NCBI GenBank assembly: GCA_903945435.1
Contig: CAJAVM010000003.1
Coordinates: 1,352-65,351 of the forward strand
DNA length: 64,000 nucleotides
DNA from: an uncultured bacterium
GTDB lineage: Bacteria; Patescibacteriota; Patescibacteriia; Patescibacteriales; UBA12465
Direction of reading: 5' to 3'
The notes beneath the pieces are model-generated. The model made no database searches, was not told where the DNA came from, and saw only the letters and a list, made by a program, of their open reading frames with translations. The stretch's first letter is position 1. The number at the start of each line of letters is the position of its first letter. This document shows positions 15,775 through 55,216 of the stretch, piece by piece. The position numbers and the translations under genes were made by a program.

Positions 15775-15806
15775 TAAAAAAAAGACCCAAATTGGGTCTT
15801 TTTTGT
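15775..15806. terminator. bidirectional rho-independent terminator
   Basis: aaaaaaag-ACCCA-aat-TGGGT-cttttttg. An A-run precedes the hairpin and a T-run follows it. Confidence 0.5.
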
Positions 15807-39455: not shown

Positions 39456-40074
39456 CCATATCGATTCGATAGCGACTTCAGCCGTGACAGCTGTATTAGT
39501 CTTTTTTATCACTAGTCGTATAGATAATAAGTTAAGAGAAAAAAATAATAAACATGAGTTTATAAGAAATCGTGAGTATGATACCCATGAAAATGTTTAT
39601 GAAGAAATTCAAAAGCTAAAAAATGACCCAGAAACAGGCTGGGCTTTTCGTTCTAGTAAAAAAGAAAAATTAGAAGAGCAAAATAATTTAAGTTTTTCTG
39701 AGTTCTGTAATGTCACCAAGAAAATTGAATTTCATAATTTAAATATTGATGGAGCTGAATCTTATATTTTAGACATTATAAAAGATAAAATTATATCTGA
39801 TATAAAAAAGTTATCTCGTCGTAGTAAAAATAAAATTCAGCAAATTTCTAAGGAAATAATTATTAAATATGAAAATGATTTTGAAGTAATTAATTCCGAG
39901 GTAGATGATTTAGTGGAGGGCTTTGGTTATTATGAAGGTAAAAAATTGTCTTTTGATGAGAGTAATTATGTTAGTTATTGTAAGACGCAAAGAGAAATAG
40001 TTCTATTAAATTATTTAGCTCCATTATTAAATAAACTTGAAATTGAACTTTCTGATTATATTAATTTAAAGTAA
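39436..40074 (+). CDS. hypothetical protein (N-terminal TM helix)
   Basis: 212 aa ORF overlapping the upstream MTase by 20 bp. No motifs recognised. Confidence 0.3.
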   Translation: MLSAITNHIDSIATSAVTAVLVFFITSRIDNKLREKNNKHEFIRNREYDTHENVYEEIQKLKNDPETGWAFRSSKKEKLEEQNNLSFSEFCNVTKKIEFHNLNIDGAESYILDIIKDKIISDIKKLSRRSKNKIQQISKEIIIKYENDFEVINSEVDDLVEGFGYYEGKKLSFDESNYVSYCKTQREIVLLNYLAPLLNKLEIELSDYINLK

Positions 40075-41413
40075 TCTTTTTTTCTCTCATAACCAGTTTA
40101 CTCTCTAAACAGCTTAATACTTCTCGCTTCTCAATAATCGACCCCTCTCTAAGCACGTATTTAGCGTAGTTTCTCATATCAACATCTTTCTGCTTATTAA
40201 AGTCTATTTCAGCTGTTCCGAGCAAGCCTTTACTGAATTTGTAGTATCTTTCAATTTCTTCATTGAATTGGTTTTTTAAGCCGATGTCATTTATATCTAG
40301 CTTATCAATTACTTGAGTTAATTGTTCAATTAATTCTTCTTCTCGAAGATAACCGCCTTTGCAGTTTATATTTTTAGCTCTAGAACATCCGTAATATACA
40401 TATCTTCTAACTGACCCATCGGCCAGTTTTTTAAATTTTTCTTCAGCCGAAATGCCTGATCCGCAATGTCCGCATTTGATAAGCTTGGTAAAGGCAAATT
40501 CCTTACAGTCTTGTCTAGAAATATTACCTCGGCTTAATTGCTCATTCGCTTTCGTATATAACTCTTTTGATATAATCGGATCGTATCCGCCTTTATACCA
40601 TTTATCGCTTCCAACTGGATATTCAAATTCGCCATAGTAGAATGGTTCTTTTATCATCCGCTGAACCATACTGATTGTCATGAACTTATTATTTTTTGTC
40701 CGCAAATCAGTTTCATCTTTTAGCCATCTATATATGCGCCGACAGCTATATTGCTCATTGGCTACTTTTTCAAATAATTGTTTTATTATTGGAGCTCTTT
40801 TAGGATCTATAAATACTTTTTTAGCGCCTTTGTCCGCATATTTATCATGTATGTATCCAATCGGCGCTCGCCCAGGACGCCAACCTTGTTCGCACTTAGC
40901 CCTTAATCCTCGTTTAACATTTTCGCCCTTATGGTCATTTTCTAATTTAGCTTGAGAACCTAGAATCATTAATAAAAATTTTTCATTAGGGCTGTTAGTA
41001 AATCTTTGGCCATGAGTTCTAATTTCTTTAATTAACCCCTGATCCATTAAATCAACCATCGCCCCTAAGTCGCCAGCATTACGGCTTAACCGATCAGGCG
41101 CCCAGCAGAGGATTCCATTAAAGATACCTCTTTTGATATCTGTAATTAATTTATTAAAAACTGGCCTCTGTCCAGAATCTTTAGCGGAATGACTTTCCTT
41201 TCTTACCTCAGTTATTTGAATATTATCCCTTATGGCCATTTCCAGCATTTCCTTTATTTGCGAGTCTATTGAAAGAGCCTGCCTTTCATCTTCTTCGGTT
41301 GATTTTCTGGCGTATAAACAGTATTTCATCTCTGTTTCTAATGCCTCTAAATTAGCCCTATTTTGGCCTCCTAGGGCTGTTTTATGCTCTAGTACCGTAG
41401 TTGCTTGGTTCAT
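40061..41413 (-). CDS. large serine recombinase (resolvase/invertase catalytic domain + recombinase domain + zinc ribbon)
   Basis: N-terminal YARKSTEEDERQALSIDSQ (the catalytic Ser context of the resolvase family). Zinc-ribbon cysteines CGHCGSG...YVYYGC. 450 aa. Confidence 0.85.
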   Translation of the reverse strand: MNQATTVLEHKTALGGQNRANLEALETEMKYCLYARKSTEEDERQALSIDSQIKEMLEMAIRDNIQITEVRKESHSAKDSGQRPVFNKLITDIKRGIFNGILCWAPDRLSRNAGDLGAMVDLMDQGLIKEIRTHGQRFTNSPNEKFLLMILGSQAKLENDHKGENVKRGLRAKCEQGWRPGRAPIGYIHDKYADKGAKKVFIDPKRAPIIKQLFEKVANEQYSCRRIYRWLKDETDLRTKNNKFMTISMVQRMIKEPFYYGEFEYPVGSDKWYKGGYDPIISKELYTKANEQLSRGNISRQDCKEFAFTKLIKCGHCGSGISAEEKFKKLADGSVRRYVYYGCSRAKNINCKGGYLREEELIEQLTQVIDKLDINDIGLKNQFNEEIERYYKFSKGLLGTAEIDFNKQKDVDMRNYAKYVLREGSIIEKREVLSCLESKLVMREKKITLN

Positions 41414-41520
41414 ATGGTTATAGTTGTTATAACCAATTAATGACGCTATTAAACAGGGAAGTCTAGGCCTAGCTGTTGGTAACTTAACTTTACTTTTTGG
41501 CTATTTCAAGTTATATTTTA

Positions 41521-41684
41521 AGTGCAAAACCACAAGTTAATATCGTGAAGCACGCGCCAATTTTTTTGGTAGCCTTGGCTTATTCGTATACAGGAACGGG
41601 CATTCCGACCTAATACGAGTAAGCGTCTTCACGGACACTTCTTGTGGTTTTGCAACCAAGGTCGGGTGTCCGTTTTTGTTTTTA
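41521..41684 (+). other. large imperfect inverted-repeat / candidate structured RNA with alternative terminator hairpin
   Basis: Stem A is gcaaaaccacaag(41523-35)/cttgtggttttgc(41640-52). Stem B is cgtgaag(41543-49)/cttcacg(41626-32). Stem C is gcttattcgta(41577-87)/tacgagtaagc(41613-23) with a U-G pair. The tip hairpin is ggaa-cgggca-ttcc. A competing hairpin cggacac(41631-37)/gtgtccg(41665-71) is followed by tttttgttttt. Confidence 0.3.
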
Positions 41685-41724
41685 TAAAGCGGACATTAGA
41701 TATTTATAAATTAATTATAAATTT

Positions 41725-42030
41725 ATGAAAAAATGTCCGTTTTGCGCCGAAGAAATACAAGACGATGCTAAAAAATGCCGTCATTGCGGAGAATATCTTG
41801 ATAAAGATAATAAAATTAAGGTAAGTAAGCATTCTGATTATGCTACGGTCACAATTATTTCCGCCATATTGCCCGTTATAGGCATTATTTTAGGAATTGT
41901 TTATCTCACTAAAAATAGCAAGGCAGATAAAAAATTAGGCGAACACGCAATTGTTGGCAGTATTTTATTTAGTATATTGTGGTTTCTAATTTTGTTAGTA
42001 TTAGGAATCCCTAATTTTATAGTTATTTAA
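41725..42030 (+). CDS. zinc-ribbon domain membrane protein
   Basis: N-terminal CPFC...CRHC zinc ribbon followed by two TM helices. 101 aa. Confidence 0.55.
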   Translation: MKKCPFCAEEIQDDAKKCRHCGEYLDKDNKIKVSKHSDYATVTIISAILPVIGIILGIVYLTKNSKADKKLGEHAIVGSILFSILWFLILLVLGIPNFIVI

Positions 42031-42066
42031 TATTAGTTTTATTAGCAGTCAGCTAATTATAAATTT

Positions 42067-42477
42067 ATGAAAAAATGTCCATTTTGTGCAGAAGAAATTC
42101 AAGATGACGCAAAAAAATGCCGTCATTGCGGGGAGTATCTTGATAAGGGTAATGTTTCTAATAAAATCAACAAAGACGGTAGATTTGATGGATTCATTGA
42201 TTTCTTAAAACGAAAATATCCCGCTTATTCCGTCGTGTCTGAAAATTATGAAAAAAATTATATAGTGCTTAACAAACAGTTAAGCGGTTTAAATCCTTTG
42301 CTGTTTATTATATTACTTCTTCTTTGGATTCTGCCAGGCGTTATATATCTTATCGTGTCTTTAAGTAGTAAAAAAATATTATCATTGACCATACAATTTA
42401 ATGAAAACAATGAGCCAGTTTCTGTTAGCGACGCGAATTTCAATTTTTTAATTGTTAAATATAAAGAGAATAATTAA
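42067..42477 (+). CDS. zinc-ribbon domain membrane protein (tandem paralog of 41725..42030)
   Basis: The first 27 aa (MKKCPFCAEEIQDDAKKCRHCGEYLDK) are identical to the upstream gene, as are 15 nt of 5' leader. A TM helix follows. Confidence 0.55.
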   Translation: MKKCPFCAEEIQDDAKKCRHCGEYLDKGNVSNKINKDGRFDGFIDFLKRKYPAYSVVSENYEKNYIVLNKQLSGLNPLLFIILLLLWILPGVIYLIVSLSSKKILSLTIQFNENNEPVSVSDANFNFLIVKYKENN

Positions 42478-42488
42478 TAGTGAGTAAT

Positions 42489-43949
42489 TTATCTCATCCC
42501 GTAGTACTCTTTATTGTGTTCCCAAATTCCAAAAGATGCAGGCCTTCTTTTATCTAAAATAATTTCATTTATCAGTAGGGTAAAAGCATCGACGAGATCA
42601 TCGTGTTTTTCTATGCCGAAGCCGACCATTTGACTTATTAATTCTTCAGCGCCATTTTTAGGAAATAGTATTCTTCCTGATTTTATTAAATATGTTGTCA
42701 TACTTAGCCTAGACAATTTATCATATCCGCCAATTTTAACGCCTTTGCTCGGGTACCCATCGCTTTTTAATTGCTGGGTGAAGGCACTTTGATAAGCCAC
42801 TTCTTCAACTAATATTTCTATTGGCTTGCCTCCTCCTATAACACTTGATGATAGTTTAATGTTCTCTATTGCTTCGGGAAATTCCATCCTTTTATTTATT
42901 AAATTGGGCAAAATATAAATTTTCATATCTTTGTCATATCCATACACCCTTGCACTTACCGCCGCCGTATAATCTGCGGTGGTTTTTGTTGATATAGCTA
43001 AATCAACGCCCATTTTTTCATAGCGATAATTATCTGGCGGAAGGGAATCATAGTACTGTAGCCATTCTTCACGGACAACTTGATCTTCGGCTGGTAATAT
43101 CTTCAGCATGAATTCTCGGTTGAAAGTGACCGCATCATAAGTATTTTTTAAATCTTCAATACTCTCATAAGTCGGGTATCTGCTAGGCCAGAGAACAACC
43201 CCATCTTCATTTATAAGCGGGTATGCTTTATAAACACCACCTCTGATTTTATTATCATTTATTTTTGCTTCCAGTCTTTTAATAACTGAGTCTTGGTGTA
43301 AGAGATTTCCAATTACAACAACAACTGTGTTCATATCTCCAGCTGGCAAAACTTCGCCCATTAGCCAATTAAATGATTTATCCCGCCCCTCCTTAGTTTT
43401 AACTGATTGAAGGTCTTCAATATCGTCGACAACAATTAAGTCTGGGCGGTATTGATTGTGTCTGGTTCCTCTAACGCTCTGTTCGACTGAAGCAGTTGCT
43501 ATTCTGGCATTGAATTTTGTCAGCACTAAAGTTTGTGAACCCCATTGATTAGGTTCTTCTTTGAATGGTCCCAGATCGCCTTTAAGTAATTGATTCTTTT
43601 CTAATTCACTCTTTATGCTTTGGAGCATGGTTTGTGCCTTTGCTTGGGTCTGGCTGATAAGAAGAACGTATTTCTTTTCAAGCTTACCCATAATCGCCCA
43701 GAGAGGATAAGAAAGACCCATGATAGTTGATTTGGCTGATCCTCTAAAAGCAACCACAACCATCATCTTATTTTTTGTGTCTTCAGTCAGACTAAACATT
43801 TCTCTTTGAAACATTGCTGTTTCCACTGTCACATAATGATTCATGTAAAGATAGAAAAACCAGTAATGACTTTCCTTAACAGTGGCCAAGCGAACCAGCC
43901 TATCGGTTAACAATTTATTAATTATTTTTTCAGTCGTTAGCTTTTTCAT
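42489..43949 (-). CDS. phage terminase large subunit
   Basis: Walker A-like VAFRGSAKST. Walker B LIVVDDIED. C-terminal RNase-H-like nuclease motifs (EKMGVDLAISTK ... GIEKHDDLVDAF). Confidence 0.7.
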   Translation of the reverse strand: MKKLTTEKIINKLLTDRLVRLATVKESHYWFFYLYMNHYVTVETAMFQREMFSLTEDTKNKMMVVVAFRGSAKSTIMGLSYPLWAIMGKLEKKYVLLISQTQAKAQTMLQSIKSELEKNQLLKGDLGPFKEEPNQWGSQTLVLTKFNARIATASVEQSVRGTRHNQYRPDLIVVDDIEDLQSVKTKEGRDKSFNWLMGEVLPAGDMNTVVVVIGNLLHQDSVIKRLEAKINDNKIRGGVYKAYPLINEDGVVLWPSRYPTYESIEDLKNTYDAVTFNREFMLKILPAEDQVVREEWLQYYDSLPPDNYRYEKMGVDLAISTKTTADYTAAVSARVYGYDKDMKIYILPNLINKRMEFPEAIENIKLSSSVIGGGKPIEILVEEVAYQSAFTQQLKSDGYPSKGVKIGGYDKLSRLSMTTYLIKSGRILFPKNGAEELISQMVGFGIEKHDDLVDAFTLLINEIILDKRRPASFGIWEHNKEYYGMR

Positions 43950-44344
43950 ATATTTTTATCAAGAGCTGCTAGTTTGAGTGCTTGCTTTACGGCTTGTTTC
44001 TGCTCTTTAGTTAATTCAAGAGTATGTTCAATTTTTCCTTTTAACTCCAGTTTGTCAGCATAAACAGGGTGATTATTTCTTAACCAAAAAAAGATAGCTT
44101 GCATGCTTTTATCCTTGATGCCTGATATCAGCTGTGATTCGGCGATGTCATTTATAAATAAGCGCCCCTCAAGGAAAGCTTTATCAACTTGCTCGGAAAA
44201 CTTTTTATCTTCCTTTTTCCAGCGATAGAAGGTTGTTCTGCCAATGCCGTTTTTTTCACAAACCAGCTGGATAATAGGAGTTTTTCTCAAGCCCTCAATT
44301 ATCAGTGCCTTGCCACTATTTTTTGCTTTTGTTTCTTTGTCCAT
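43946..44344 (-). CDS. putative phage terminase small subunit (HTH)
   Basis: 132 aa. HTH segment GIGRTTFYRWKK. It overlaps the terL start by 4 bp. The call rests on position and domain inference. Confidence 0.45.
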   Translation of the reverse strand: MDKETKAKNSGKALIIEGLRKTPIIQLVCEKNGIGRTTFYRWKKEDKKFSEQVDKAFLEGRLFINDIAESQLISGIKDKSMQAIFFWLRNNHPVYADKLELKGKIEHTLELTKEQKQAVKQALKLAALDKNI

Positions 44345-44349
44345 ATTAT

Positions 44350-45201
44350 TTAATTTAATTTTTTAGCTTTTAATCCAGTTAACTTTTCAAATCTTTCTAT
44401 AATTGTCTGGCAATATTCTGGATCTAGTTCTATCATTAAGCATTTTCTTTTTGTTTGTTCGCAACTGAGTAAAGTCGTTCCCGATCCCCCAAAGGGATCA
44501 TATACATAATCACCTATCTTAGAACTGTTTAATATCAGTTGACGCATTAATGATAAAGGTTTTTGCGTAGGATGACTTTTGCTACTACTCGGTTTAGGAC
44601 AGAAGATTACACTCTTGTCTTTTGACTTAGTAAATAGATGTGTGCCGAACCATGAAAAAATTATGAGCTCGTGCTGAGGCAGATAATCTTTGCGCCCAAC
44701 TACGGCCTGATTTTTTACCCAAATTAGAAGTTGTGAAAAATGGATACCTATTTCATCCATTGCTTGTTTTAAAGCAAATAGCATGATGTCGCTATTAAAA
44801 ATGTAGATGGAATTTTTCTTATCCAGAAAGGGAAGTGCTAATGAAAGCCAACTTTTGGTAAATGTTTTATATTCATCATTGCTTTGAATCTGGTCATTAG
44901 CAATTTCTTTTGGCTTACTTAATTTTTGGGCAAATCCCGCTTTTGATTGGCAATACGCGCAACCATATGGTGGGTCGCAAGCAATTAGCCTGATTATGTC
45001 TTGGCCGATAAGTTTTGTAACGCTTTCTTGATCGCAGGCGTCTGAGCACATCAGCCTATGATTTCCCAGCTGATAAATTTCACCTGTCTTAATTAAGTTT
45101 TTTAGCTTTTGTGTTTGCATATTTTTCATAGCGATTAATAATAAGTTGGCAGAAAATTGGATTGATTTCCGCCGTGTAACATATTCTGTTAAGCTGTTCA
45201 C
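44350..45201 (-). CDS. phage-type DNA methyltransferase (beta-class N6A/N4C; DPPY then DPFGGSGTT)
   Basis: Motif IV CDPPYG precedes motif I DPFGGSGTT. The called start is a GTG at 45201 that overlaps the upstream gene by 113 bp. The ATG at 45129 or 45120 is more likely the true start. Confidence 0.7.
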   Translation of the reverse strand: MNSLTEYVTRRKSIQFSANLLLIAMKNMQTQKLKNLIKTGEIYQLGNHRLMCSDACDQESVTKLIGQDIIRLIACDPPYGCAYCQSKAGFAQKLSKPKEIANDQIQSNDEYKTFTKSWLSLALPFLDKKNSIYIFNSDIMLFALKQAMDEIGIHFSQLLIWVKNQAVVGRKDYLPQHELIIFSWFGTHLFTKSKDKSVIFCPKPSSSKSHPTQKPLSLMRQLILNSSKIGDYVYDPFGGSGTTLLSCEQTKRKCLMIELDPEYCQTIIERFEKLTGLKAKKLN

Positions 45202-46363
45202 ACGCTAGAAGAGTCGACCCCGATCCAGCGTAGATGTCTAATATAATATCGCCAGGCTTAGAACAGCGTTTTAAAGGCTTCTCGTGGAGATTTAAAGGTT
45301 TTTGTGCCGAGTGTTCGTAGTTTGATCCAATATCTCTTTTAGCTAGCCAGATATCTAAAATATCAATTATATTATCTATTGCCCTATTGCCTGATTCTAT
45401 TTCTTTGTTTAAAGCTTCACAGGCTTTAGTTGATAGTTTGGATAGGAACGGCTTGCCAGTTTTTCCGTATATACAAAATTCGGTCGCCTTATTAAATGCG
45501 ACATTAGGCGTAGGATTGAACGCACCCTTGAACCAGAAGCAGGCTCTTTCGTTCTTTATGCTTAGTTCTCGGTATAGAGTTTGGATTAACCAGATATTTG
45601 ATTGATCGCACCAAGTGAAGTAATGGCAATTTTCCTTTGCGTGTTTTAAAGAATTTTTTAGTCCAGCTAATAGAAATTTTTTATATTCATCATCGGTTTT
45701 ATTATCTTTAATATCTCCGCCGTAATTTGAACGATTACCGACCCCTTTATCATAATTTAGCCCAATATTAAAAATTGGATCATTATAGATTAGGTCGGCT
45801 TTGTTTTCTCCAAGTAATTTGTCCAGTGTTTCTGTTTTGTGGCTATCTCCACAAATCAAAAAGTGCTTGCCTAGCTGGAAGATGTCACCTAACTTTATGT
45901 CAGTCTTATTTATTTTCTGCAATTCCTTTTCTTCATTAAAATTATCATTCTCAATTTCAATGTCATTATCAAAAACCTGAAGTAAATCATCTTCATTTAA
46001 TCCAGATTCAAGTAAGATATCTAAATCTATTTCCTTGAGAAGCGAATAATTCCATGATCCATGATTAGAGTTGCTTCGAAGTAAATATTCCTTGAATTCT
46101 TTTTCATCTAGCTGACGGTTAGGAACTCTAACGTCTATTTCTTCTTCGCCTCTGTCCAGTAATTGCAAAACACGGATTCTTTGATGGCCAGCTAGAATCT
46201 GACCGCTTATTGTTATGGCAGGTATCTCGGCGAGATTGAATTTTTTAATACTGGCTTTAAGATCACTTAATTGTTTATCCGACATGATGCGCGGATTTTT
46301 TTCGTAGGGAAGCAGGTCGTTGACTTTCCGCTTCTCTGTGTGCCAAATGATTTGTTTGGTCAT
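45089..46363 (-). CDS. ParB-like nuclease domain fused to DNA methyltransferase
   Basis: N-terminal ParB-N motif (ILAGHQRIRVL). C-terminal MTase motifs NDPIF and DIYAGSGSTLLACEQ. The C-terminus is paralogous to the downstream MTase (...NRYEKYANTKAKKLN versus ...ERFEKLTGLKAKKLN). Confidence 0.7.
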   Translation of the reverse strand: MTKQIIWHTEKRKVNDLLPYEKNPRIMSDKQLSDLKASIKKFNLAEIPAITISGQILAGHQRIRVLQLLDRGEEEIDVRVPNRQLDEKEFKEYLLRSNSNHGSWNYSLLKEIDLDILLESGLNEDDLLQVFDNDIEIENDNFNEEKELQKINKTDIKLGDIFQLGKHFLICGDSHKTETLDKLLGENKADLIYNDPIFNIGLNYDKGVGNRSNYGGDIKDNKTDDEYKKFLLAGLKNSLKHAKENCHYFTWCDQSNIWLIQTLYRELSIKNERACFWFKGAFNPTPNVAFNKATEFCIYGKTGKPFLSKLSTKACEALNKEIESGNRAIDNIIDILDIWLAKRDIGSNYEHSAQKPLNLHEKPLKRCSKPGDIILDIYAGSGSTLLACEQLNRICYTAEINPIFCQLIINRYEKYANTKAKKLN

Positions 46364-46487
46364 AATTTTTTTGTTAATAAATTATGTCTTAATTGTATGA
46401 GTTATCTGAGGGGCAGGACATTACACTTTGTGTAAACAAAAAAAATCGCTATTTTTTAGCGATTTTTAGGAACTATTTTGTATTAAA

Positions 46488-47243
46488 TTATAATTTTTTT
46501 AGATTATTTAGAGCATCTTTATACCTTTTTCTATAAATTGCTACCTCACTGTATCCCAAGGCAACTCGGTTTTTACCGTATTTATCGTTTAATTCTTTGG
46601 AAATTTTTTTATCCCCCTTTTTTATTTTAGTTAAATCCCAGGTATCTTTGGCTACGGTTTGAGGCTTCTTAACTTTGTTATTTTTTCCATCTTTTATTAT
46701 CTCGGTTATTTTTTTACATGCCATAGCTATATCTCGGCTGGTTGTGTGAGGAAAAATTTCTAGATATATTTTTCCCGGGGTAAAAGTGTACTTATTTATT
46801 TCTGGGTTTTCGTTAGCAATAATAATTCGTGTTCCAGGAATCTTCTTTCTGGTAAGCCCAGATTTTAGTTTTATTCCTTCTTTTGAAAATTCAGGCAATA
46901 AGTAAGTAATTAGATTTTTATTTATTATATAATCAGCTGTAAAAAATACACAGTTAGAAATTAGATTATTCGGTATTTTAAATTTACTTATTAGTTTTTT
47001 TGAATTCAAAAATAAGATTCTGTGATTCTTGCTATTTGCATGTTCCCAATCAAAAGACAGTTGGTTATTATTAAAGCCTTCTTTTGGAATATTAAGATTG
47101 GTTCTTATCCTCCCAACTTCTTTAATAAAGAAAGGATGGTCTAATAACAAGGAATAAAGCCATGACTCATCTCTAGATAAATCATCTCCGTTTGGAAAAG
47201 TGTATATATTGCTATTTTCTATTTTTTGGTTATTTATACTCAT
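46488..47243 (-). CDS. hypothetical protein (first gene of the leftward MTase/terminase operon)
   Basis: 251 aa ORF with no recognised motifs. Basic C-terminal region. Confidence 0.3.
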   Translation of the reverse strand: MSINNQKIENSNIYTFPNGDDLSRDESWLYSLLLDHPFFIKEVGRIRTNLNIPKEGFNNNQLSFDWEHANSKNHRILFLNSKKLISKFKIPNNLISNCVFFTADYIINKNLITYLLPEFSKEGIKLKSGLTRKKIPGTRIIIANENPEINKYTFTPGKIYLEIFPHTTSRDIAMACKKITEIIKDGKNNKVKKPQTVAKDTWDLTKIKKGDKKISKELNDKYGKNRVALGYSEVAIYRKRYKDALNNLKKL

Positions 47244-47280
47244 ATATTGTTATTTTATCATTATTAGCCATTTTTAGGTA

Positions 47281-47315
47281 GTTTACTATGATTTATTAAT
47301 ATAATATTAGTAAAC
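47281..47315. promoter_or_regulatory. inverted repeat gtttacta-N19-tagtaaac in divergent promoter region (candidate operator)
   Basis: Perfect 8 bp arms at 47281-47288 and 47308-47315. They lie between the divergent 46488..47243 (-) and 47355..50231 (+) genes. A candidate -10 TATAAT lies at 47379-47384. Confidence 0.3.
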
Positions 47316-47354
47316 GAGATAGCTTAACCTTAGCAAAAAATACCTTGATTTTGC

Positions 47355-50231
47355 TTGTTTTTAGGAGTAAAGTCTAAATATAATTATAAAAGAAGCAAAA
47401 ATATGATTCAACAAAAATTTCCAAGAGGCTCGGAGTGGAGAAAATGGGATTTGCACGTGCATACTCCAGCTTCATTTTTTTGGGTAGGAGGCAAAAAATT
47501 AAAGGATTTATCTGATGAAATTAAGGAAGGCCATGTTGAATCAGAAAAAGATGAAGAAATAAAAAAATTCATAAAAGCCGTTAATGAATCGGACGTAGCA
47601 GTTTTTTGTATAATGGATTATTGGACGTTTGATTGGTATATAGAGCTAAAAAAATATTTACTAAGGCACCCAGGAGAATTGAACAAAACCATTTTTCCTG
47701 GTATGGAGTTGCGTGTTGAATGCCCAGTTGACTATAGACTCAATATTCATTTTATTTTGTCAGATAAATTAACTGAACAGAATTTAAATGATTTTAAGTC
47801 AGAATTAATGATAAGATCAGTTAACAGAAAATTGTCGGAGGAGGCCTTAATTGCTTCTGCAAAAATGCTAGACGCCAGTAAGGCTGCGGTGCATGGATAT
47901 GGAGACCCGTCTGTTTTGTCCGATGAAAAGTTATTAGAATTAGGTTCTAAAACGGTAGAAATAACAAAAGATTCTTTAAATACAGCATTAAAAAATATTC
48001 CGCCAGAGTCAGGCTATATTATTTTACCATATGATACCTCCGATGGACTTATTGATTTGGATTGGAAAACTCATCCACACGATGATAATTATTTCATGCA
48101 AACGGCTAGTATTATTGAAACTAGAAAAGCGGATAATGTAGATTTGTTCAATTGTTTGAAAACTGAAGCAAATAAAGATTTTTTTATTAATTTTAGTAAG
48201 ACTATTAAAAATACACCAAAACCATGTGTTTCTGGAAGTGATGCCCATGAGTATAAAAATTATGGAAAATATCCATCTGATAAAATTACATGGGTTAAGG
48301 CTGACCCAACATTTGAAGGTTTAAAACAAATAATATATGAGCCAGTAGATAGGGTTAAAATTCAAGAGTCTAGACCGGAAGAAAAAGATGATTACCAAGT
48401 TATAGATAAAATAAATTTTATAGACAATAAGTTTTTGCCAGACGATATATTAATAAATGAAAACTTAACAACGATTATCGGAGGTAAGTCTACTGGAAAG
48501 TCAGTTTTATTAAGAAATATAGCTAAAACTATTGACCCCGAAGAAGTTAAAACAAGACTTGGAGAGGTTGGCTTATCTGAATACGAAAAAGATGTAGAAG
48601 GATTCAAGGTTATTTGGAAAGATGGGCAGGAAAATGTTAAAAATGAAGATAAAGGAGTTAGAAAAAAAATTATTTATATACCGCAATCATATCTCAACAG
48701 ACTGGTAGATAAAAAAGAAGATAAAACATCTATAGACGAAATAATCAGAAATGTTCTACAACAGGATGATGAGGTAAGCAAAGCATTTGAGGAATTGAAA
48801 GAGTTTGAAAGAAATAATGAAAAAGAAATTTCTAAAAATGTGGATGATCTTTTTTACTCCAAAAAAGATTTTGCTGAACAATCTGAACTTATCAAAAATA
48901 TTGGCGACAAAAGGGGTATTTCTGAACAAATAAAAAGATTAGAGGTAGAAATTAAGGATTTGAAGGAAAAGGCTGGCATGACCCCCGATCAGATTTCTAA
49001 TTATAATTTATTAACGGAGAAAATAGGCAAAATAAAAAAGGAGAAGGAAGTAATTAACAACGATTTAATTTATTTAGATGCATTATCAAAAACAGATCCA
49101 TTCTTATTTATAGACTTTGAAGGGATTTCGTTGGAAATTAAAAATGGAATTTCCACTGATTTTGATAAATTAAAAATGGAATTTATTATTTCATGGCAGG
49201 CTCGTATTAGTGTAAGTGTAGGCAAACTTAACGAGGATTTAATCACAAAGGAATTAGAATTAATATCGGCTACAGATGAGTTAAATCCGTTATTAGAAAA
49301 AGCTAGAGAGAGTCGTGCATTAAATGAAAAAATTTCTAGATTAGATGGCGAAAAAAGTAAACTTAACACAATAGAAAAAGAAGAGTTGAAGCTAGAAAAA
49401 ATTAGACAAAATTATTTTAAATCGTTGTCTAATATGTCCGAATTGCACTTGGAATTTTATAATAAATATTTTGACAGTAGGGCTAAAATATTGAAACAGA
49501 CTATCATAGATGGAGAGATAACTTTTGATTTAAACGTTTCTTTCAGAAGTTTGTATTTTCAGAAAAATATTAATGAAATATTTGACCAAAGAAAATTGTC
49601 TAAATTTACCGATGTTAATATATTAGATTATTCATATTCTGATAATATTAATTTAAAACAGGACATAAGCAAAGTTATTTCTGGAATTTTATCTGAAAAG
49701 TTAGTCTTGAAAAGTGGCTATTCAAAAAAGGATGCAATAAATAAGATGTTACAGAATTGGTTTTCTTTAGATTATGCTATTAAGCAGAATGATGACGATA
49801 TTTCACAGATGTCTCCAGGAAAGAAGTCATTTGTTTTATTGAAATTATTAATAGAGCTTGATAAAAGCAAGTGCCCTATATTGTTAGACCAGCCAGAAGA
49901 CGATTTGGATAACAGATCTATATATAATGATTTAGTTAGGTTTATAAAAGATAAGAAGAAAGGAAGGCAAATTATTATAGCAACGCATAATCCGAATTTG
50001 GTTATTGGTGCGGATGCTGAAAATATTATTGTTGCCAACCAAAGTGGTGAAAAGACCCCAAACAAAACTTTTCAATTTGAGTATGTCACAGGCTCTATTG
50101 AGGATTCTTTTGAAAATAGTGGAGAAACAGCAATTTTATATCAGAAAGGTATTCAAGAACACGCCTGTGATATATTAGAAGGCGGTGAAGATGCCTTTAA
50201 GAAGCGAAAGCGACAATATAGTTTTAATTAA
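47355..50231 (+). CDS. PHP-domain phosphoesterase fused to ABC/Rad50-like (AAA_15/AAA_21-type) coiled-coil ATPase; Ppl-like
   Basis: PHP motifs WDLHVHTP, GMELRV and SGSDAHEY. Walker A IIGGKSTGKS. A coiled-coil of about 250 aa. A signature-like MSPGKKS, Walker B ILLDQPEDD and the H-loop IIATHNP. The called start is TTG at 47355. The ATG at 47403 (MIQQKFPRGSEWRKWDLHVHTP) is more likely the true start. Confidence 0.7.
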   Translation: MFLGVKSKYNYKRSKNMIQQKFPRGSEWRKWDLHVHTPASFFWVGGKKLKDLSDEIKEGHVESEKDEEIKKFIKAVNESDVAVFCIMDYWTFDWYIELKKYLLRHPGELNKTIFPGMELRVECPVDYRLNIHFILSDKLTEQNLNDFKSELMIRSVNRKLSEEALIASAKMLDASKAAVHGYGDPSVLSDEKLLELGSKTVEITKDSLNTALKNIPPESGYIILPYDTSDGLIDLDWKTHPHDDNYFMQTASIIETRKADNVDLFNCLKTEANKDFFINFSKTIKNTPKPCVSGSDAHEYKNYGKYPSDKITWVKADPTFEGLKQIIYEPVDRVKIQESRPEEKDDYQVIDKINFIDNKFLPDDILINENLTTIIGGKSTGKSVLLRNIAKTIDPEEVKTRLGEVGLSEYEKDVEGFKVIWKDGQENVKNEDKGVRKKIIYIPQSYLNRLVDKKEDKTSIDEIIRNVLQQDDEVSKAFEELKEFERNNEKEISKNVDDLFYSKKDFAEQSELIKNIGDKRGISEQIKRLEVEIKDLKEKAGMTPDQISNYNLLTEKIGKIKKEKEVINNDLIYLDALSKTDPFLFIDFEGISLEIKNGISTDFDKLKMEFIISWQARISVSVGKLNEDLITKELELISATDELNPLLEKARESRALNEKISRLDGEKSKLNTIEKEELKLEKIRQNYFKSLSNMSELHLEFYNKYFDSRAKILKQTIIDGEITFDLNVSFRSLYFQKNINEIFDQRKLSKFTDVNILDYSYSDNINLKQDISKVISGILSEKLVLKSGYSKKDAINKMLQNWFSLDYAIKQNDDDISQMSPGKKSFVLLKLLIELDKSKCPILLDQPEDDLDNRSIYNDLVRFIKDKKKGRQIIIATHNPNLVIGADAENIIVANQSGEKTPNKTFQFEYVTGSIEDSFENSGETAILYQKGIQEHACDILEGGEDAFKKRKRQYSFN

Positions 50232-50256
50232 TTTATAAATTGGCAAAATTAATAGT

Positions 50257-51012
50257 ATGTTTAATATTCAAAATATTATAAATTTTATACCAATTGCTGT
50301 AATTATTTCAGCTATTGTTTTTTTAGTAAAATTCTTTGGAAAAGCGAGCACCGATCAGGTTCCGTTTGCTGATAATAGATCTTGGCATGAAGAATTATTT
50401 GGAATTGAATTTTTTGCCACCAGACTTGCATCTCCTTTAATATTCATATTTATTTTATATTCACGTCACTGGAATCCGCTGAAATTTACATCGGATGATT
50501 TATGGCTTTTTATTTTTGGAATTATTTCGGTAGTCATGCTTAACTTAGCTTCAAAAAATGCATTTAAATTTTTTAAAGATGATAACTTTGACGACGGGAA
50601 TCTTTTATCACTTTTAAAAAAGTTATATAAAAATAAAAATGATGAAAAGTTTGAACAAGGAGAAAATTTGTTAATTCTAAAACACCTTGTTTTCCCAGTA
50701 GTCGCTTATTTTATGATGGTGATGCTCATTCTTTTTTATGAATGGGGATCTTATTACCATTTATTAATTGCAATAATTTATTTCTTATTTTTTCTCTTAT
50801 CGTTTGCCCTTTTATTATCATTAAAAAAACGGAATATATTAAAGGCTAATATAAAATTTATCAACAATGAGGAAGAAGAAATAAAAGATTGCAGGGTCTT
50901 AAGGATAAATGAAGATAATATCAAAGTTAAAATTACAAATAATAAAGTTATAATTTTAAATAAGTCCACTGTTTCGAGGATAGAATTTGTTAATAATAAT
51001 TTGGAAAACTAA
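50257..51012 (+). CDS. polytopic membrane protein (4-5 TM) with C-terminal soluble domain
   Basis: Hydrophobic helices (IPIAVIISAIVFLV; LIFIFILY; LWLFIFGIISVVML; VFPVVAYFMMVMLILF; LLIAIIYFLFFLLSFALLL). It starts 25 bp after the PHP-ATPase stop. Confidence 0.45.
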   Translation: MFNIQNIINFIPIAVIISAIVFLVKFFGKASTDQVPFADNRSWHEELFGIEFFATRLASPLIFIFILYSRHWNPLKFTSDDLWLFIFGIISVVMLNLASKNAFKFFKDDNFDDGNLLSLLKKLYKNKNDEKFEQGENLLILKHLVFPVVAYFMMVMLILFYEWGSYYHLLIAIIYFLFFLLSFALLLSLKKRNILKANIKFINNEEEEIKDCRVLRINEDNIKVKITNNKVIILNKSTVSRIEFVNNNLEN

Positions 51013-51571
51013 ATTTATGGGCATAGCTTATAAAAATTTTTGGAGTTTAAATACCGACGAAGCCGTTGTGGCTGGTATTTTAAGAAATGCCACCAGCAAA
51101 GATGTGGAAGTGTTAATGCCGTTAAATGCCCAAATGAAAGGAGTCGATCTTTACCTGTTAAATATTAAGACTAAAAATATTATAACTATTCAAGTAAAGG
51201 GAAGCAGGGCGTATGAACCACAGAAGGCTGAAGTCAAAAAATATGGTGACGGTTCAGGCGGTTGGTTTTTCTTTCCAAAAGAAGTAGTAACTAATGCGAC
51301 AGCAGATTTTTTCTGTTTTTTGATTTACATACTTGAAGAAAACGGAAAAACAGGAAGAAGAATTATTACGCCACATACATTAATGATCCCGACGCAAGTT
51401 TTAAAAGAAAAAAGTTTAAAATATAAAAAAACCCATGGGGATGGCCGCTTTAGTTATAAGATTTGGGTTAACCCATCAGACAAAAAGGCTTTTGATTTTA
51501 GAGATGAAAAAATTGATTTCGATGATTTTTTGGATAAAAAAGGTTTTGCTGTGATTAATAAAGAATTATAA
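50987..51571 (+). CDS. hypothetical protein, possible PD-(D/E)xK (restriction-endonuclease-like) fold
   Basis: E...D...QVK pattern (DVEV ... GVDLYLLN ... IQVKG). The true start is probably the ATG at 51017 (MGIAYKN). Inference only. Confidence 0.3.
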   Translation: MLIIIWKTKFMGIAYKNFWSLNTDEAVVAGILRNATSKDVEVLMPLNAQMKGVDLYLLNIKTKNIITIQVKGSRAYEPQKAEVKKYGDGSGGWFFFPKEVVTNATADFFCFLIYILEENGKTGRRIITPHTLMIPTQVLKEKSLKYKKTHGDGRFSYKIWVNPSDKKAFDFRDEKIDFDDFLDKKGFAVINKEL

Positions 51572-51585
51572 ATATTTTTCTTGGT

Positions 51586-52719
51586 ATGATTGAAGAATTT
51601 TTTAAAAAAGATCCAATTGAAAAAGTTGAAAGAGAACTGAGATTTTTGGTGTGGGATATCCTTTCTCAGAAATACGGTGAAGGCTGGATTTATAATGAGG
51701 AAATTATTTGCAAACAAAAATGGGCAGATGAATTAAAAAAAGTTTTTGAAAAAGATAAAAAAATACAACATAACGATAATATTCGTGAATTGTTGATTTC
51801 ATATGCCGATTTTTTTGACATAAAAAAGCTTATAAAGAAAAATCGATCATTATTTGAATCTGTTTTTTCTAATTTTGAAGTTATTGTCGGCTATATTGAA
51901 ACTATTATTGGTCTTCGTAATGCAATTAAACATCATCGCGATATCTCATTAAATCAGCAACATCTTTTAATAGGAATATGCGGAGAAATAATTGATGCAA
52001 TTAACCTCTGGAGAATAGGATCAAAAATAGAATTAGATCGAATCGTTTTGTCTTTTAATGATTATATTGCGACTGAGGGGAAAAGTGAAACGCAAATTTT
52101 GTCGGAGGCAATTGAAAAAATAAATGAAATTCAAAATATTTTTTTGCATTCTTTAAAAAGTAATAGTATTGAGATTTTTAATACGAATAATAGTAGTGAT
52201 TTTGAAACCGTAATTAATACTCAGTATATTAAAATTGAGATAAGAACAAATAATAAAATCACTCCTGACAGTAAAATAGACAATATAGAATATAAGACTA
52301 TTCATAGTCGCTTGAGCTACAAAGCTGAATGCCCAGTGTCCCTAGACTTGATAATGGCAAATACAAATAAAACCTATCGGGTTATAGAGTATCTATTAAA
52401 AGGATTTATAGATATTAATCGTTTGAAAGAATGGTCTGAAAGACAGGCGGGGCTAACTCCTGGATCAAGCGTTGCCACGAACGGATCTTTTGATAGTATT
52501 GATTATGGTTTTTTGGGTGGAAAAATTAGAGTTCAGGCGGGGAAGCATGTGAATGAATTAAATGAAATTTGCGGAAAATTATCTTTATTGAATAATATTA
52601 ATGCTGAAAAATGGAATCCGCATTCAAATATAACGCCTAATGATTTAATAGGATTTATGCTTGGTAATATTTCTTCAAGAACTATCATGAATCTTTACAG
52701 AGAATCATTAGGTAAATAA
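51586..52719 (+). CDS. HEPN-domain protein (Rx4H motif), Abi/Swt1-like
   Basis: LRNAIKHH at aa 110-117 (nt 51913-51936) gives the HEPN Rx4-6H signature in a helical context. 377 aa. Confidence 0.4.
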   Translation: MIEEFFKKDPIEKVERELRFLVWDILSQKYGEGWIYNEEIICKQKWADELKKVFEKDKKIQHNDNIRELLISYADFFDIKKLIKKNRSLFESVFSNFEVIVGYIETIIGLRNAIKHHRDISLNQQHLLIGICGEIIDAINLWRIGSKIELDRIVLSFNDYIATEGKSETQILSEAIEKINEIQNIFLHSLKSNSIEIFNTNNSSDFETVINTQYIKIEIRTNNKITPDSKIDNIEYKTIHSRLSYKAECPVSLDLIMANTNKTYRVIEYLLKGFIDINRLKEWSERQAGLTPGSSVATNGSFDSIDYGFLGGKIRVQAGKHVNELNEICGKLSLLNNINAEKWNPHSNITPNDLIGFMLGNISSRTIMNLYRESLGK

Positions 52720-52723
52720 AAAA

Positions 52724-53716
52724 ATGTCTGGATACGATCAAACAATAAAAATAAAAGTAAAATTTCAAGAAGACACTAAAAAGTTTTTAAAATTTTTAAA
52801 TTCTGTTGGCAAAAAGTACAAACGACCAACAATAATAAATTATAGATATCTTGGAAGGGGCAGATTCAATCTTATAGTTGATGGTGGCCCTGGTGGAATA
52901 GATGCTTTATTTCAAGAATTAGTGCTTAACAAGGGGTTGTATTATTACGGTTGCACTTTAAATAATAAAAAAGATATTATTTCCAATGTCATCCTTCCCG
53001 TATTTAGGCAGTTAATAGATAGGAGATTCGAAAATTCTCAGTCAAGATTTTTAAGAAAACATATACTAGGAAAATCTGCTCAGACAGAATTTGTCCCTTC
53101 TAATGCCACTGGTCGATTTAGTTATTTAATGGAAATCATATATAGAAAATGGGATATCGGAATTATAACAAATAAAGATTATATAATAGAAATTGATGGG
53201 GTTTTAAATAGTTTTTTAATGAATAAACTCGGATATAAAGAGGGCGATAGGAGTCCGAAATTCGATAGACTATTATCTAGTTTTAAAAAATCATTTTTAA
53301 TAAATGATATGCAGGGAGTCTTTCATGATGTTCATAAAATGAAAACGGAAGTATATCATAGACTTAGTGATATTAAAACAAAGGACAAATTGGAATTTAT
53401 ATCTAATAACTTGTTAAGCTATTTTAATTATTTTGATGAATTTGAGGCATCACAAAAAATAAAAACGATTAAGATTAGAGGAAAGAGGTATAGGAGAATA
53501 AAATATGGTTATGAAAAATGTGTGGATAGTAACGGACTTCCTTATCTGAATGACGATGGGACTCCAATTGACTGGGTAAAAATATCAAGCGAAAAAGATT
53601 GTCATGATTGCGGGGTGAAAAGAGGCCAGTATCACGTTGAGGGTTGTGATGCTGAGGTTTGTCCGAAGTGCGGAGGGCAATATATTAGTTTTGATTGCGG
53701 ATTGCCAACTTATTAA
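52724..53716 (+). CDS. hypothetical protein with C-terminal zinc-finger/zinc-ribbon
   Basis: C-terminal CHDCG...H...C...CPKCGGQY...C. It starts 4 bp after the HEPN gene stop. Confidence 0.35.
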   Translation: MSGYDQTIKIKVKFQEDTKKFLKFLNSVGKKYKRPTIINYRYLGRGRFNLIVDGGPGGIDALFQELVLNKGLYYYGCTLNNKKDIISNVILPVFRQLIDRRFENSQSRFLRKHILGKSAQTEFVPSNATGRFSYLMEIIYRKWDIGIITNKDYIIEIDGVLNSFLMNKLGYKEGDRSPKFDRLLSSFKKSFLINDMQGVFHDVHKMKTEVYHRLSDIKTKDKLEFISNNLLSYFNYFDEFEASQKIKTIKIRGKRYRRIKYGYEKCVDSNGLPYLNDDGTPIDWVKISSEKDCHDCGVKRGQYHVEGCDAEVCPKCGGQYISFDCGLPTY

Positions 53717-53750
53717 AAATACCGCCTTCGACCTAGGCGGTATTTTGTAT
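53716..53750. terminator. strong bidirectional rho-independent terminator
   Basis: Perfect 11 bp stem aaaataccgcc/ggcggtatttt with loop ttcgaccta. Confidence 0.55.
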
Positions 53751-53824
53751 AAAAAATCCTAAATTATTTTGCCCCGTATCGCTTGCATTTTTACATTTTG
53801 ACAAACAAAATAAAATAGAATTAT

Positions 53825-54034
53825 TTATCTTCGATGTTGTATCTGATCAACTCTATTTTCCTTTAGATAATTAATAATATCTTCTTCGGAAAAACGGAGA
53901 ACACCATTTATCTTGTAGAAGGGAATTTTTCTTCCTTCGACAATGCGATAGGCGGTAGTCTGGGATATGTTAAATATTTGACCAAGATCTTTAATTGATA
54001 GGAGTTTTAAATTTTTTAGAGACATGTCATTCAT
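53825..54034 (-). CDS. excisionase/AlpA-family HTH DNA-binding protein
   Basis: 69 aa. LSIKDLGQIFNISQTTAYRIVEGRKIPFYKINGVLRFSEEDIINYLKE matches the HTH_17/excisionase-family domain pattern. Confidence 0.6.
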   Translation of the reverse strand: MNDMSLKNLKLLSIKDLGQIFNISQTTAYRIVEGRKIPFYKINGVLRFSEEDIINYLKENRVDQIQHRR

Positions 54035-54105
54035 ATCCTCTATTTTACTATAAAATTAAATAATTTAGAATATTGTTCCTTGTGCTATTATTTGTTGGTT
54101 TAGTC

Positions 54106-54154
54106 AAATGGAACACGGGAAAATGCCCCTTGTGGTGTGCCATTTGTTCCATTT
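54106..54154. promoter_or_regulatory. 10 bp perfect inverted repeat aaatggaaca/tgttccattt upstream of the Xis-like gene
   Basis: Arms at 54106-54115 and 54145-54154. Direct repeats of ttgttcc and ccttgtg also occur in 54072-54133. Confidence 0.3.
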
Positions 54155-54337
54155 ACCCACTAAATACCCGACCGACTGCCGTTATTTCGCCCCAATATAT
54201 ATCTTCAAAAAACCTTTGAAAATTGCTATATCCTTGGTTCTAGACAGACACGGGGAGCTAAATAAAAAACTGCGTACTATAATGGTATGCAGTTTTTTAT
54301 TTGATCAAATAATTTTAAGGTTTATTGTAATTTACTA

Positions 54338-55216
54338 CTAAAATGAATCTGCAAGTTTCTTAATAAGATTAGTATTATTTACTGGCCTTAATCTAGCAAG
54401 AAAAAACCTATTAATCTCAGATTGCTGTTCGCCAGCAATTACAGAAACAGCCGCTTGATATCCAGCTTTCTCGACGTACTCAGCGATAGCTTTATTAAAC
54501 GAACCGTAAGGATAAGCAATTGTCGCAACTGGGGCTTTAAATCGTTTTTCAAGCAATGTTTTACTTAAAGTTACCTGACGTTTAGCCTCATTTTTATTTA
54601 GAGAGGTAAGCATTTTGTGATCCAGAGCATGGGAACCAATTTCCACTAAGCCGCTATTCATCATCTCTTTAATCATATCTTCCGTTAAATAATCAGGGGC
54701 ATTAATAGCATTATATATTACATAAACAGTTGCCTTAATTTGATATTTTTTGAGAAGAGGAAATACGTATTCATAAAAATCACGGTAACCATCATCAAAA
54801 GTTAGGGCAATATTTTTCTCTTTAGTAAAATCACCGTTAACTCTTGAAGCGACTTGGCTCATGGTTATTGTTTGAAATTTTGATTTATTAATTAACTCTA
54901 ATTGTTGTTCAAAAATTTCAGGAGAAATTGTTAGACTAGCTCTTAAAGCATCATCCTTTTTTAAAGGTTCAACGTAATGATATAGAAGAATTGGTAGATA
55001 CACAGAGTTAGTGCGAGCCTCTACTTCAGGCGATGTTTTATTTTCAGAAGTGGCAGTAGGGGGGTTTTCTTCTGTTGAGCTTGCATTAAGAGGTTCATTA
55101 TAAATATCTAGCATTGCCGATATTTGTTGATTAAACATTAAACTTTCCGCTTCTTTATTTTTAGTTTTTTCAAATTTGATTTTTATGTATATACCTAAAA
55201 TTAAAAAAACAATCAC
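54338..55216 (-). CDS. polysaccharide deacetylase (NodB homology domain), membrane-anchored
   Basis: IALTFDDGYRDFYEYVFPLLKKYQIKATVYVI (NodB motifs TFDDG and H-x-x-H context). N-terminal TM helix. Confidence 0.7.
   Translation of the reverse strand: MIVFLILGIYIKIKFEKTKNKEAESLMFNQQISAMLDIYNEPLNASSTEENPPTATSENKTSPEVEARTNSVYLPILLYHYVEPLKKDDALRASLTISPEIFEQQLELINKSKFQTITMSQVASRVNGDFTKEKNIALTFDDGYRDFYEYVFPLLKKYQIKATVYVIYNAINAPDYLTEDMIKEMMNSGLVEIGSHALDHKMLTSLNKNEAKRQVTLSKTLLEKRFKAPVATIAYPYGSFNKAIAEYVEKAGYQAAVSVIAGEQQSEINRFFLARLRPVNNTNLIKKLADSF

Follow-up and report, generated by a model that had tools for sequence, protein, structure and literature searches.

HEPN gene and catalytic motif

The stretch of DNA analysed here in its full length of 64,000 nt (the window), part of contig CAJAVM010000003.1 of an uncultured bacterium of the Patescibacteriota, contains what looks like an integrated element of ~14 kb (~40.06-54.3 kb, 40061-54341). 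Towards the right end of this element lies a gene for a protein of 377 amino acids (aa), here called the HEPN protein, which is the subject of this report. RNases of the HEPN type belong to the effectors that bacterial immunity and toxin-antitoxin (TA) systems use most often. The gene, its domains and the segment with which it travels are as follows:

51586..52719, + strand: gene of the two-domain HEPN protein, 377 aa, with ATG start (list of open reading frames, translation)
51586..52020, + strand: N-terminal Swt1/Abi2-clade HEPN domain, aa 1-145 (Pfam, PADLOC, helix topology)
51913..51936, + strand: LRNAIKHH, aa 110-117, the R-N-x3-H catalytic motif (R111, N112, H116), with R118 just after it
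52021..52719, + strand: C-terminal domain, aa 146-377, predicted as two tandem beta-alpha-beta4(-alpha) units (domain-only AlphaFold2 model)
52021..52371, + strand: hypervariable first beta-alpha-beta4 unit, aa 146-262, with the lowest identity in every pairwise comparison
51353..52728, + strand: ~1.4-kb cassette of the last ~70 codons of a 194-aa gene plus the HEPN gene, common to three contexts (blastn breakpoints)

The stop codon TAA (52717-52719) is followed by AAAA and, at 52724, by the ATG of an open reading frame (ORF) for a 330-aa Zn-ribbon protein; the distance of 4 nt is the one given in the original prediction, a note made from the sequence before this analysis. That note had also recognized LRNAIKHH at nt 51913-51936 as an R-x4-H signature, and the translation bears this out, placing R111, H116 and H117. 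Taken alone, the R-x4-H motif is weak evidence and not beyond chance: among 20,000 shuffles of the HEPN protein, R-x4-H appeared in 29%, R-x4-6-H in 64% and R[NDHQ]x3H in 6%, and the protein contains a second, non-conserved R-x5-H at aa 315. The motif gains its meaning from its conservation and from the profile matches among homologues.

N-terminal domain

A word-indexed search of 5.8 billion proteins identified 7 full-length homologues with 34-98% identity, in all of which R111, H116 and R118 are invariant. An exhaustive profile search retrieved 873 proteins at E<=1e-3; among the matches listed, ~60 were full-length two-domain proteins, and most others shared positions ~8-145 alone. Conservation was counted over the homologues aligned to the family hidden Markov model (HMM; n=144 at the motif). 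R111 was kept in 144/144 and H116 in 143/144 sequences, followed by R118 (128/144) and by N or D at position 112 (126/144), where HEPN proteins usually have a polar residue (N/D/H), and E15, R19, W34 and G130 were near-invariant as well. The original prediction had described the signature as R-x4-H plus a second His. The R and H of this description stand as conserved residues, whereas the second His, H117, is variable among homologues (S/G/R/H).

The HEPN protein matched the Pfam family HEPN_Swt1 (PF18731) over aa 42-125 with E 4.5e-4, and 16 of its 38 full-length relatives matched this family at E<=0.01 (best E 7.3e-7), so that the apparent homology to HEPN_Swt1 is supported transitively through the relatives. 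The PADLOC profile PDC-M34B (PDLC04592) was matched over aa 13-121 with E 8.9e-11, on a profile of 192 positions, and it was matched by 37 of the 38 full-length relatives, too. In addition, the family profile A2 retrieved the protein P0156, which carries precomputed PF18731 and PF18725 annotations. An NCBIfam search with the HEPN protein gave no match, and in the PDB neither the protein nor the profiles A2 (full-length) and A4 (N-domain) found anything better than E 0.31, to an unrelated protein. None of the Pfam models Abi_2, HEPN_AbiV and RnlA was matched by the HEPN protein at E<=1. Of the profiles proposed for checking in the original prediction, the Swt1-like one was thus found, at a score below its threshold, and the Abi_2 and RnlA ones were not.

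An AlphaFold2 model of the full HEPN protein (pLDDT 83.9, pTM 0.79) contains the helices H1 (10-30), H2 (44-61), H3 (97-115) and H4 (122-143), with short helices at 70-90 inside an insert (62-96) between H2 and H3. The HEPN core has been described as four helices in up-down arrangement, interrupted by an insert after the second helix and carrying the motif where helix 3 ends or the loop to helix 4 starts (PMC3710099). At the level of secondary structure and topology, the model has this four-helix order and the H2-H3 insert, and it places the motif where H3 ends. A predicted helix order that fits the HEPN bundle and the conserved R and H, the two points on which the original prediction had staked its HEPN assignment, were therefore both found, and the assignment itself is supported by the Pfam and PADLOC matches, the R/H conservation and the model topology. 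Residues 1-145 are thus supported as a Swt1/Abi2-clade HEPN domain with intact R-N-x3-H. The helix order and the R-N-x3-H at the end of helix 3 are common to the Swt1-like HEPN domains of this clade (Anantharaman et al. 2013). The described bacterial architectures of the Swt1 clade are AAA+/DUF499, transmembrane and giant helicase fusions; a C-terminal double beta-alpha-beta4 module is not among them.

C-terminal domain

Residues 146-377 found no match in sequence searches against Pfam, NCBIfam, PADLOC and the PDB. Modelled as a separate domain, they gave a confident AlphaFold2 prediction (pLDDT 87.6, pTM 0.85) with units at aa ~150-262 and ~263-377. The domain is kept in ~58 relatives, with conserved Y264 (56/60), H346 (56/57), G360 (48/53), D or N at position 276 (59/62) and, likewise, G289. 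In a Foldseek search of the C-terminal domain against the PDB, Escherichia coli RnlA (6y2p_A) was the sole match at E<1e-3, and two further RnlA entries held ranks 4 and 5.

RnlA is an anti-phage HEPN toxin with the domain order TBP1-TBP2-HEPN, whose activity needs the canonical HEPN dimer, whose TBP domains contribute to substrate binding and to the resting state, and whose antitoxin, as in other RnlA-type HEPN toxins, is encoded downstream (PMC8266594). Like RnlA and LsoA (RnlAB, LsoAB; PDB 6Y2P, 4I8O), which measure ~360-380 aa, the HEPN protein combines a HEPN RNase domain with what the model presents as two tandem TBP-like beta-alpha-beta4 domains, and all of them occur in an anti-phage or mobile-element context. 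Unlike in RnlA, the HEPN domain stands first here, the HEPN clades differ, and no conserved antitoxin gene resembling RnlB or LsoB accompanies the gene. The model therefore suggests an RnlA-like domain set in reversed order. We consider this a resemblance; membership in the RnlA family is not established, because there is no RnlA profile match, no conserved antitoxin gene and no sequence similarity between the two halves of the C-terminal domain. The label "RnlA/LsoA-like" in the original prediction hence applies in part, and to the C-terminal domain, which resembles RnlA in the Foldseek search, whereas the HEPN domain, for which it had been proposed, is not what matches best.

Gene neighbourhoods

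The HEPN gene belongs to a string of co-directional genes, and a gene for a large serine recombinase marks the far end of the element:

40061..41413, - strand: large serine recombinase (Pfam Resolvase, Recombinase, Zn_ribbon_recom), at the far end of the ~14-kb element
47355..50231, + strand: TrlF-family protein with PHP and ABC-type ATPase (Ppl-like), opening the co-directional string (NCBIfam NF045780)
50257..51012, + strand: hydrophobic 251-aa protein, probably a membrane protein (translation; 92% identity in L010)
50987..51571, + strand: 194-aa protein (184 aa from the ATG at 51017), no family match (Pfam, PADLOC, NCBIfam)
52724..53716, + strand: 330-aa protein with C-terminal Zn ribbon, here Zn330 (weak Zn-ribbon Pfam matches)
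53710..53752, + strand: hairpin ACCGCCT-N7-AGGCGGT followed by TTTTGT, just past the Zn-ribbon gene (inverted repeat I22)

We compared this arrangement with other loci that carry the HEPN gene (L001-L015) and with four loci that carry homologues of Zn330 (L016-L019). The sister element in L010 is colinear with window positions 41543-52728 at 85% nt identity (blastn). This colinearity ends nine bases past the HEPN stop codon, and similarity resumes at 54083; a recombinase gene, an AbiV-type HEPN gene and a 360-aa gene replace the Zn-ribbon gene there. L001 and L002 share only positions 51353-52728 of the window (L002 1084-2459); their upstream genes differ, and an AbiV-HEPN gene follows downstream. 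The loci L002 and L010 are otherwise ~90% identical and differ by a 1269-bp indel (L010 11161-12430 vs L002 2471-2477) that corresponds almost exactly to one serine-recombinase gene, lies between the HEPN and the AbiV-type HEPN genes and has a 6-7-bp junction overlap. The last ~70 codons of the 194-aa gene travel with the cassette, and a promoter of the HEPN gene may lie inside that gene.

The pair of HEPN and Zn-ribbon genes recurs only in L013, a 98%-identical copy, and a Zn330 homologue is absent from nine other HEPN loci. With the same type of search, the Zn330 family comprises at least 120 homologue clusters at 90% identity vs 7 for the HEPN protein. In L016-L019 the Zn330 homologues are solo genes with their own intergenic spacers and no HEPN neighbour. 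Proteins of this family are ~330 aa long, labelled "hypothetical" and phylogenetically widespread (Omnitrophota, Bacteroidota, the metagenome-assembled genome (MAG) of an Asgard archaeon), and the homologue in L016 lies within a defence island with methylase/helicase and GmrSD genes.

A different setting was found at genes for tRNA-Asn(GTT):

L003 107-181: tRNA-Asn(GTT)
L007 565-639: tRNA-Asn(GTT)
L008 7489-7563: tRNA-Asn(GTT)
L009 1368-1442: tRNA-Asn(GTT)

At these four loci the HEPN gene lies between the tRNA-Asn side and a convergent, overlapping serine-recombinase gene. The tRNA gene and ~160 nt of conserved flank precede a slot with variable cargo, the HEPN gene and the recombinase gene. 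The space between the tRNA-Asn and HEPN genes is taken up by one gene or two (455, 471 or 190+522 aa), which are unrelated and could not be annotated; the variable upstream proteins of 455, 471 and 522 aa showed no relationship to each other or to window proteins in phmmer searches and contained no Pfam domains. We rejected a further "ORF" of 81-124 aa upstream in L003, L008 and L009, as it overlaps the tRNA-Asn gene and its conserved downstream flank. Past the recombinase gene follow DISARM-like or SNF2/methylase genes in L003, L008 and L009, and L007 ends within the recombinase gene. Islands of this type were binned to a MAG of the Gammaproteobacteria (L008) and to one of the Patescibacteria (L009), and their recombinases are 99% identical, which indicates either recent transfer or a binning error. 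Upstream of the HEPN gene, L008 (7817-8401) and L007 (904-1476) also encode a 190-194-aa protein without Pfam match that contains WRNVLAHR, a second HEPN-like R-N-x3-H, and several loci stack two different HEPN-type genes.

Among the remaining loci, L004 has type I restriction-modification (RM) genes past the recombinase gene, L005 and L014 have neither recombinase nor TrlF, and the L014 gene (P0061) is free-standing. Recombinase homologues that are 47-54% identical to the one in the window adjoin the HEPN gene in L003, L004, L007, L008, L009 and L010. Altogether, the neighbours of the HEPN gene vary across L001-L015, and the gene downstream of it is Zn330, AbiV-HEPN, a recombinase, a 127-aa ORF or none, depending on the context. 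We found no hidden conserved partner gene among the loci compared. No partner is conserved and neighbours differ by locus; the HEPN gene is an autonomous cassette, and its adjacency to TrlF and to the Zn-ribbon gene is local. This corrects the operon picture: the HEPN gene and the Zn-ribbon gene are independent stacked modules and not one system, and the same probably holds for TrlF. The original prediction had placed the gene in a candidate operon, which describes the co-directional string in the window but not the arrangement across loci; its further proposal, translational coupling of the HEPN and Zn-finger genes, which would imply a functional pair, is not supported in this sense, as the pair occurs only in the window and L013 and is replaced in L010.

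Sequence divergence

Compared with L010, the genes around the HEPN gene encode proteins with 92-97% aa identity, whereas the HEPN protein itself has 64%. A 251-aa protein without family match, encoded on the - strand at 46488-47243, has 54% and is a second hypervariable gene of the element; it may be a conflict gene, too. Much of the divergence of the HEPN protein is located in aa 146-262, with 45-50% identity to L010 vs 64-81% in the other segments, and ~20% vs 40-48% in distant pairs. The nt identity falls to 0.60 at 52043-52292. Conservation is higher in the catalytic domain and over the last ~55 residues than in aa 146-262.

This pattern of divergence recurs on two element backbones that are not related. 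Recombinases of the tRNA-Asn islands share 81-99% identity and the adjoining HEPN proteins 56-91%; between L003 and L009 these values are 99% and 59%. Diversifying pressure on a gene, or frequent replacement of its alleles, would be expected to leave such a pattern, as in a conflict gene whose variable unit may set specificity. Two series of natural alleles (64% vs >92% and 59% vs 98%) could serve to map that specificity.

Function and alternative explanations

We propose, with a probability of roughly 0.6, that the HEPN protein is a two-domain effector of the ribonuclease type, acting as an autonomous conflict or abortive-infection RNase on integrative elements. The reading builds on what this analysis found, namely the assigned domains, the conserved motif, the travelling of the gene as a cassette and its fast divergence, from which we infer RNase activity, activation by dimerization, a sensor role of the C-terminal domain and a function in defence. 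It corresponds to the defence and mobile context over the loci, where serine recombinase, DISARM-like, type I RM, SNF2/methylase and AbiV-type HEPN genes are neighbours. By analogy with RnlA (PMC8266594), the general HEPN literature (PMC3710099) and the single-protein system HEC-08 (bioRxiv 10.1101/2024.01.29.577857), the resting protein would be a monomer or a non-canonical dimer held by contacts between the C-terminal and HEPN domains. The variable unit (aa 146-262) might recognize a trigger or set target specificity, or the TBP-like pair might bind the RNA substrate. Canonical HEPN dimerization would then juxtapose two R111/H116 pairs in a composite RNase cleft, and the ensuing RNA cleavage would arrest the growth of the infected cell, kill it or exclude a rival element. 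In the Patescibacteria element of the window, the cassette would have landed at the end of the TrlF string, in front of an unrelated solo Zn-ribbon gene.

Several results weigh against this proposal. The score of the HEPN protein for HEPN_Swt1 (20.9 bits) stays below the gathering threshold of 27.5 bits. With the whole chain as query, Foldseek gave no match at E<1e-3 in the PDB, where RnlA ranked 28th with E 0.12, and none at E<1e-3 in BFVD. The match of the C-terminal domain to RnlA 6y2p_A (E 4.5e-4, prob 0.87, 211 columns) superposes poorly (TM 0.21, rmsd 15 Å). Aligning the two halves of this domain with hhalign detected no internal repeat (prob 0.4%); as the halves lack mutual sequence similarity, it is the predicted topology that makes them tandem. 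We found no antitoxin or immunity partner that would restrain a constitutively encoded toxin. Finally, tblastn against phage genomes yielded no match and a scan of viral contigs no relatives; tblastn against plasmids yielded three Streptomyces matches only, with 27% identity to the HEPN domain.

The gene order of the window also invites the view that the HEPN protein is one effector subunit of a multi-gene TrlF system, with the PHP-ABC ATPase as sensor of infection and activator of the membrane, 194-aa, HEPN and Zn-ribbon proteins encoded downstream. The five genes are co-directional, their gaps range from -26 to +25 nt and a terminator-like hairpin occurs only past the last; TrlF, membrane, 194-aa and HEPN genes keep their order in L010, and the pairing of an ABC ATPase with a nuclease effector is common among defence systems. 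However, L010, with 85% nt identity, represents the same element, so that both stand for a single element lineage and not for independent observations, and in L002 other genes take the place of the upstream ones, beginning halfway through the 194-aa gene. Members of the HEPN family occur without a TrlF homologue in L003, L004, L005, L007, L008, L009 and L014. The related Ppl works as a one-gene system. Its models (NCBIfam NF042955 "anti-phage protein Ppl", PADLOC Ppl) describe one protein of ~880-890 aa, and TrlF itself, named in Photorhabdus, has TrlG and TrlR as its described partners there and no HEPN protein (bioRxiv 10.1101/2020.06.02.129163). We therefore regard a TrlF system with a HEPN subunit as unlikely. 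A two-gene TA module that stabilizes the element, with the translationally coupled Zn-ribbon protein as antitoxin, is very unlikely. The 4-nt distance from stop to start, the retention of the pair in L013 and the downstream position of the antitoxin in RnlA-type HEPN toxins (PMC8266594) would fit it, but L013 is 98% identical and not independent, the Zn-ribbon gene is replaced in L010 and has no homologue at the nine other HEPN loci, its family is far larger and solo in L016-L019, and 330 aa is large for an antitoxin.

Ranking just below, and highly improbable in our view, is a role outside defence as partner of the large serine recombinase in integration, excision or maintenance of the element. 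A recombinase gene adjoins the HEPN gene at 6 of ~9 distinct loci, convergently in five of these six and with 3' ends overlapping by 51-111 nt in four of the five; in the window they occupy opposite ends of the element, and circularization would make them neighbours. This adjacency may merely reflect a shared element backbone, though, and the disparity between recombinases (81-99% identical) and HEPN proteins (56-91%) is unlike that of co-evolving partners. Moreover, the HEPN gene occurs without a recombinase gene in L001/L002, L005 and L014, the recombinase-sized indel between L010 and L002 leaves it unchanged, and we know of no recombination directionality factor that is a HEPN protein. Least probable of all appears a catalytically silent protein for RNA binding or sensing, or a housekeeping RNA-processing enzyme, without any role in conflict: some HEPN domains, namely in eukaryotic Swt1 and in some nematode copies, have been inferred to be inactive binders (PMC3710099), but here the catalytic R and H are essentially invariant, and the distribution is patchy, rare, mobile-element-borne and fast-evolving. 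The autonomous conflict or abortive-infection RNase hence remains our preferred explanation.

Relation to described systems

Databases label the HEPN protein "hypothetical", and no library model spans its C-terminal domain. Of the PADLOC candidate system PDC-M34, component B is matched by the HEPN domain, with the C-terminal domain outside the match, whereas PDC-M34A had no match at E<=1 among the six proteins scanned (46488-53716). PDC systems are candidate defence systems that occur inside BREX, DISARM or type I RM systems (bioRxiv 10.1101/2024.01.29.577857), a neighbourhood that resembles the settings in L003, L004, L008 and L009. Our literature search found nothing on PDC-M34 or Swt1-like HEPN. 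The single-protein HEPN system HEC-08, in which defence was lost upon mutation of the Rx4-6H histidine (Payne et al., bioRxiv 10.1101/2024.01.29.577857), is similar in that a single polypeptide joins an N-terminal HEPN domain to a non-catalytic C-terminal region; it differs in its DUF3644-type HEPN domain and Zn-finger-like C-terminus and has no sequence match here. The lactococcal Abi2/AbiD/AbiF and AbiV proteins are likewise stand-alone HEPN proteins on mobile DNA, for which killing of infected cells has been proposed. In L001/L002 the HEPN gene is followed directly by an AbiV-type HEPN gene, and in L010 such a gene lies past an intervening recombinase gene, but the HEPN protein matched neither the Abi_2 nor the HEPN_AbiV model of Pfam at the cutoff used above.

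Finding a HEPN RNase domain encoded by a mobile element, with defence genes around it, is nothing unusual. In the literature searched, three aspects are seemingly undescribed: the architecture of a Swt1-clade HEPN domain with a C-terminal, RnlA-like double beta-alpha-beta4 module, the behaviour as a hypervariable cassette in serine-recombinase islands, and the presence in Patescibacteria. The gene offers a compact single-gene case in which a conserved catalytic domain is set against a hypervariable, putative sensor unit, and it adds cargo of the defence type and a lineage of mobile elements to Patescibacteria (candidate phyla radiation, CPR), whose phage defence is poorly known. A tentative extension, which we consider doubtful at present, would make the HEPN protein the founding member of an undescribed family of single-protein abortive-infection systems. 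Such a "reversed RnlA" would sense a molecule of a phage or rival through its hypervariable first TBP-like unit and thereby release HEPN dimerization, and it would be signature cargo of large-serine-recombinase islands, some of them at tRNA-Asn genes, that move between ultra-small Patescibacteria and other bacteria.

The element and other features of the window

From left to right, the element carries the serine recombinase, two Zn-ribbon paralogues, a terminase-like gene, an HTH gene, two N6/N4 DNA methylases, the 251-aa protein of unassigned family, TrlF, the hydrophobic 251-aa protein, the 194-aa protein, the HEPN protein, the Zn-ribbon protein, the hairpin and, near the right end, one further gene:

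53825..54034, - strand: 69-aa HTH_17 (excisionase-like) protein, near the right end of the element (L013 counterpart annotated PF12728)

The GC content is raised at 40-46 kb. With its ~14 kb, a block of genes of the defence type and no capsid or tail genes, the element is satellite-like or a cryptic remnant. No convincing att-like direct repeats flank the region of 40-54.3 kb, and the element boundaries are approximate. The paralogous small Zn-ribbon proteins adjoin the serine recombinase, and a 100-nt direct repeat with 89% identity (41712-41811 vs 42054-42153) extends over the starts of their tandem genes.

The TrlF-family protein matched NF045780 with E 1.5e-165 (553 bits vs a cutoff of 350) and PADLOC Ppl with E 1.4e-18; TrlG and TrlR are not evident among the genes flanking it. 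In the 194-aa protein, D54...Q-V-K68 recalls PD-(D/E)xK nucleases, by eye only and with no profile match. The hairpin at 53710..53752 is the probable end of the transcription unit, although the terminator scan did not report it; in this AT-rich DNA the consensus scan for promoters and terminators was uninformative, with 50 promoter-like sites vs 44 expected. Elsewhere in the window, a bacterial class A RNase P RNA (10137-10526, 205.8 bits) and two tRNA genes, tRNA-Leu(CAA) at 15805-15889 and tRNA-Gln(CTG) at 36588-36661, confirm the chromosomal bacterial context.

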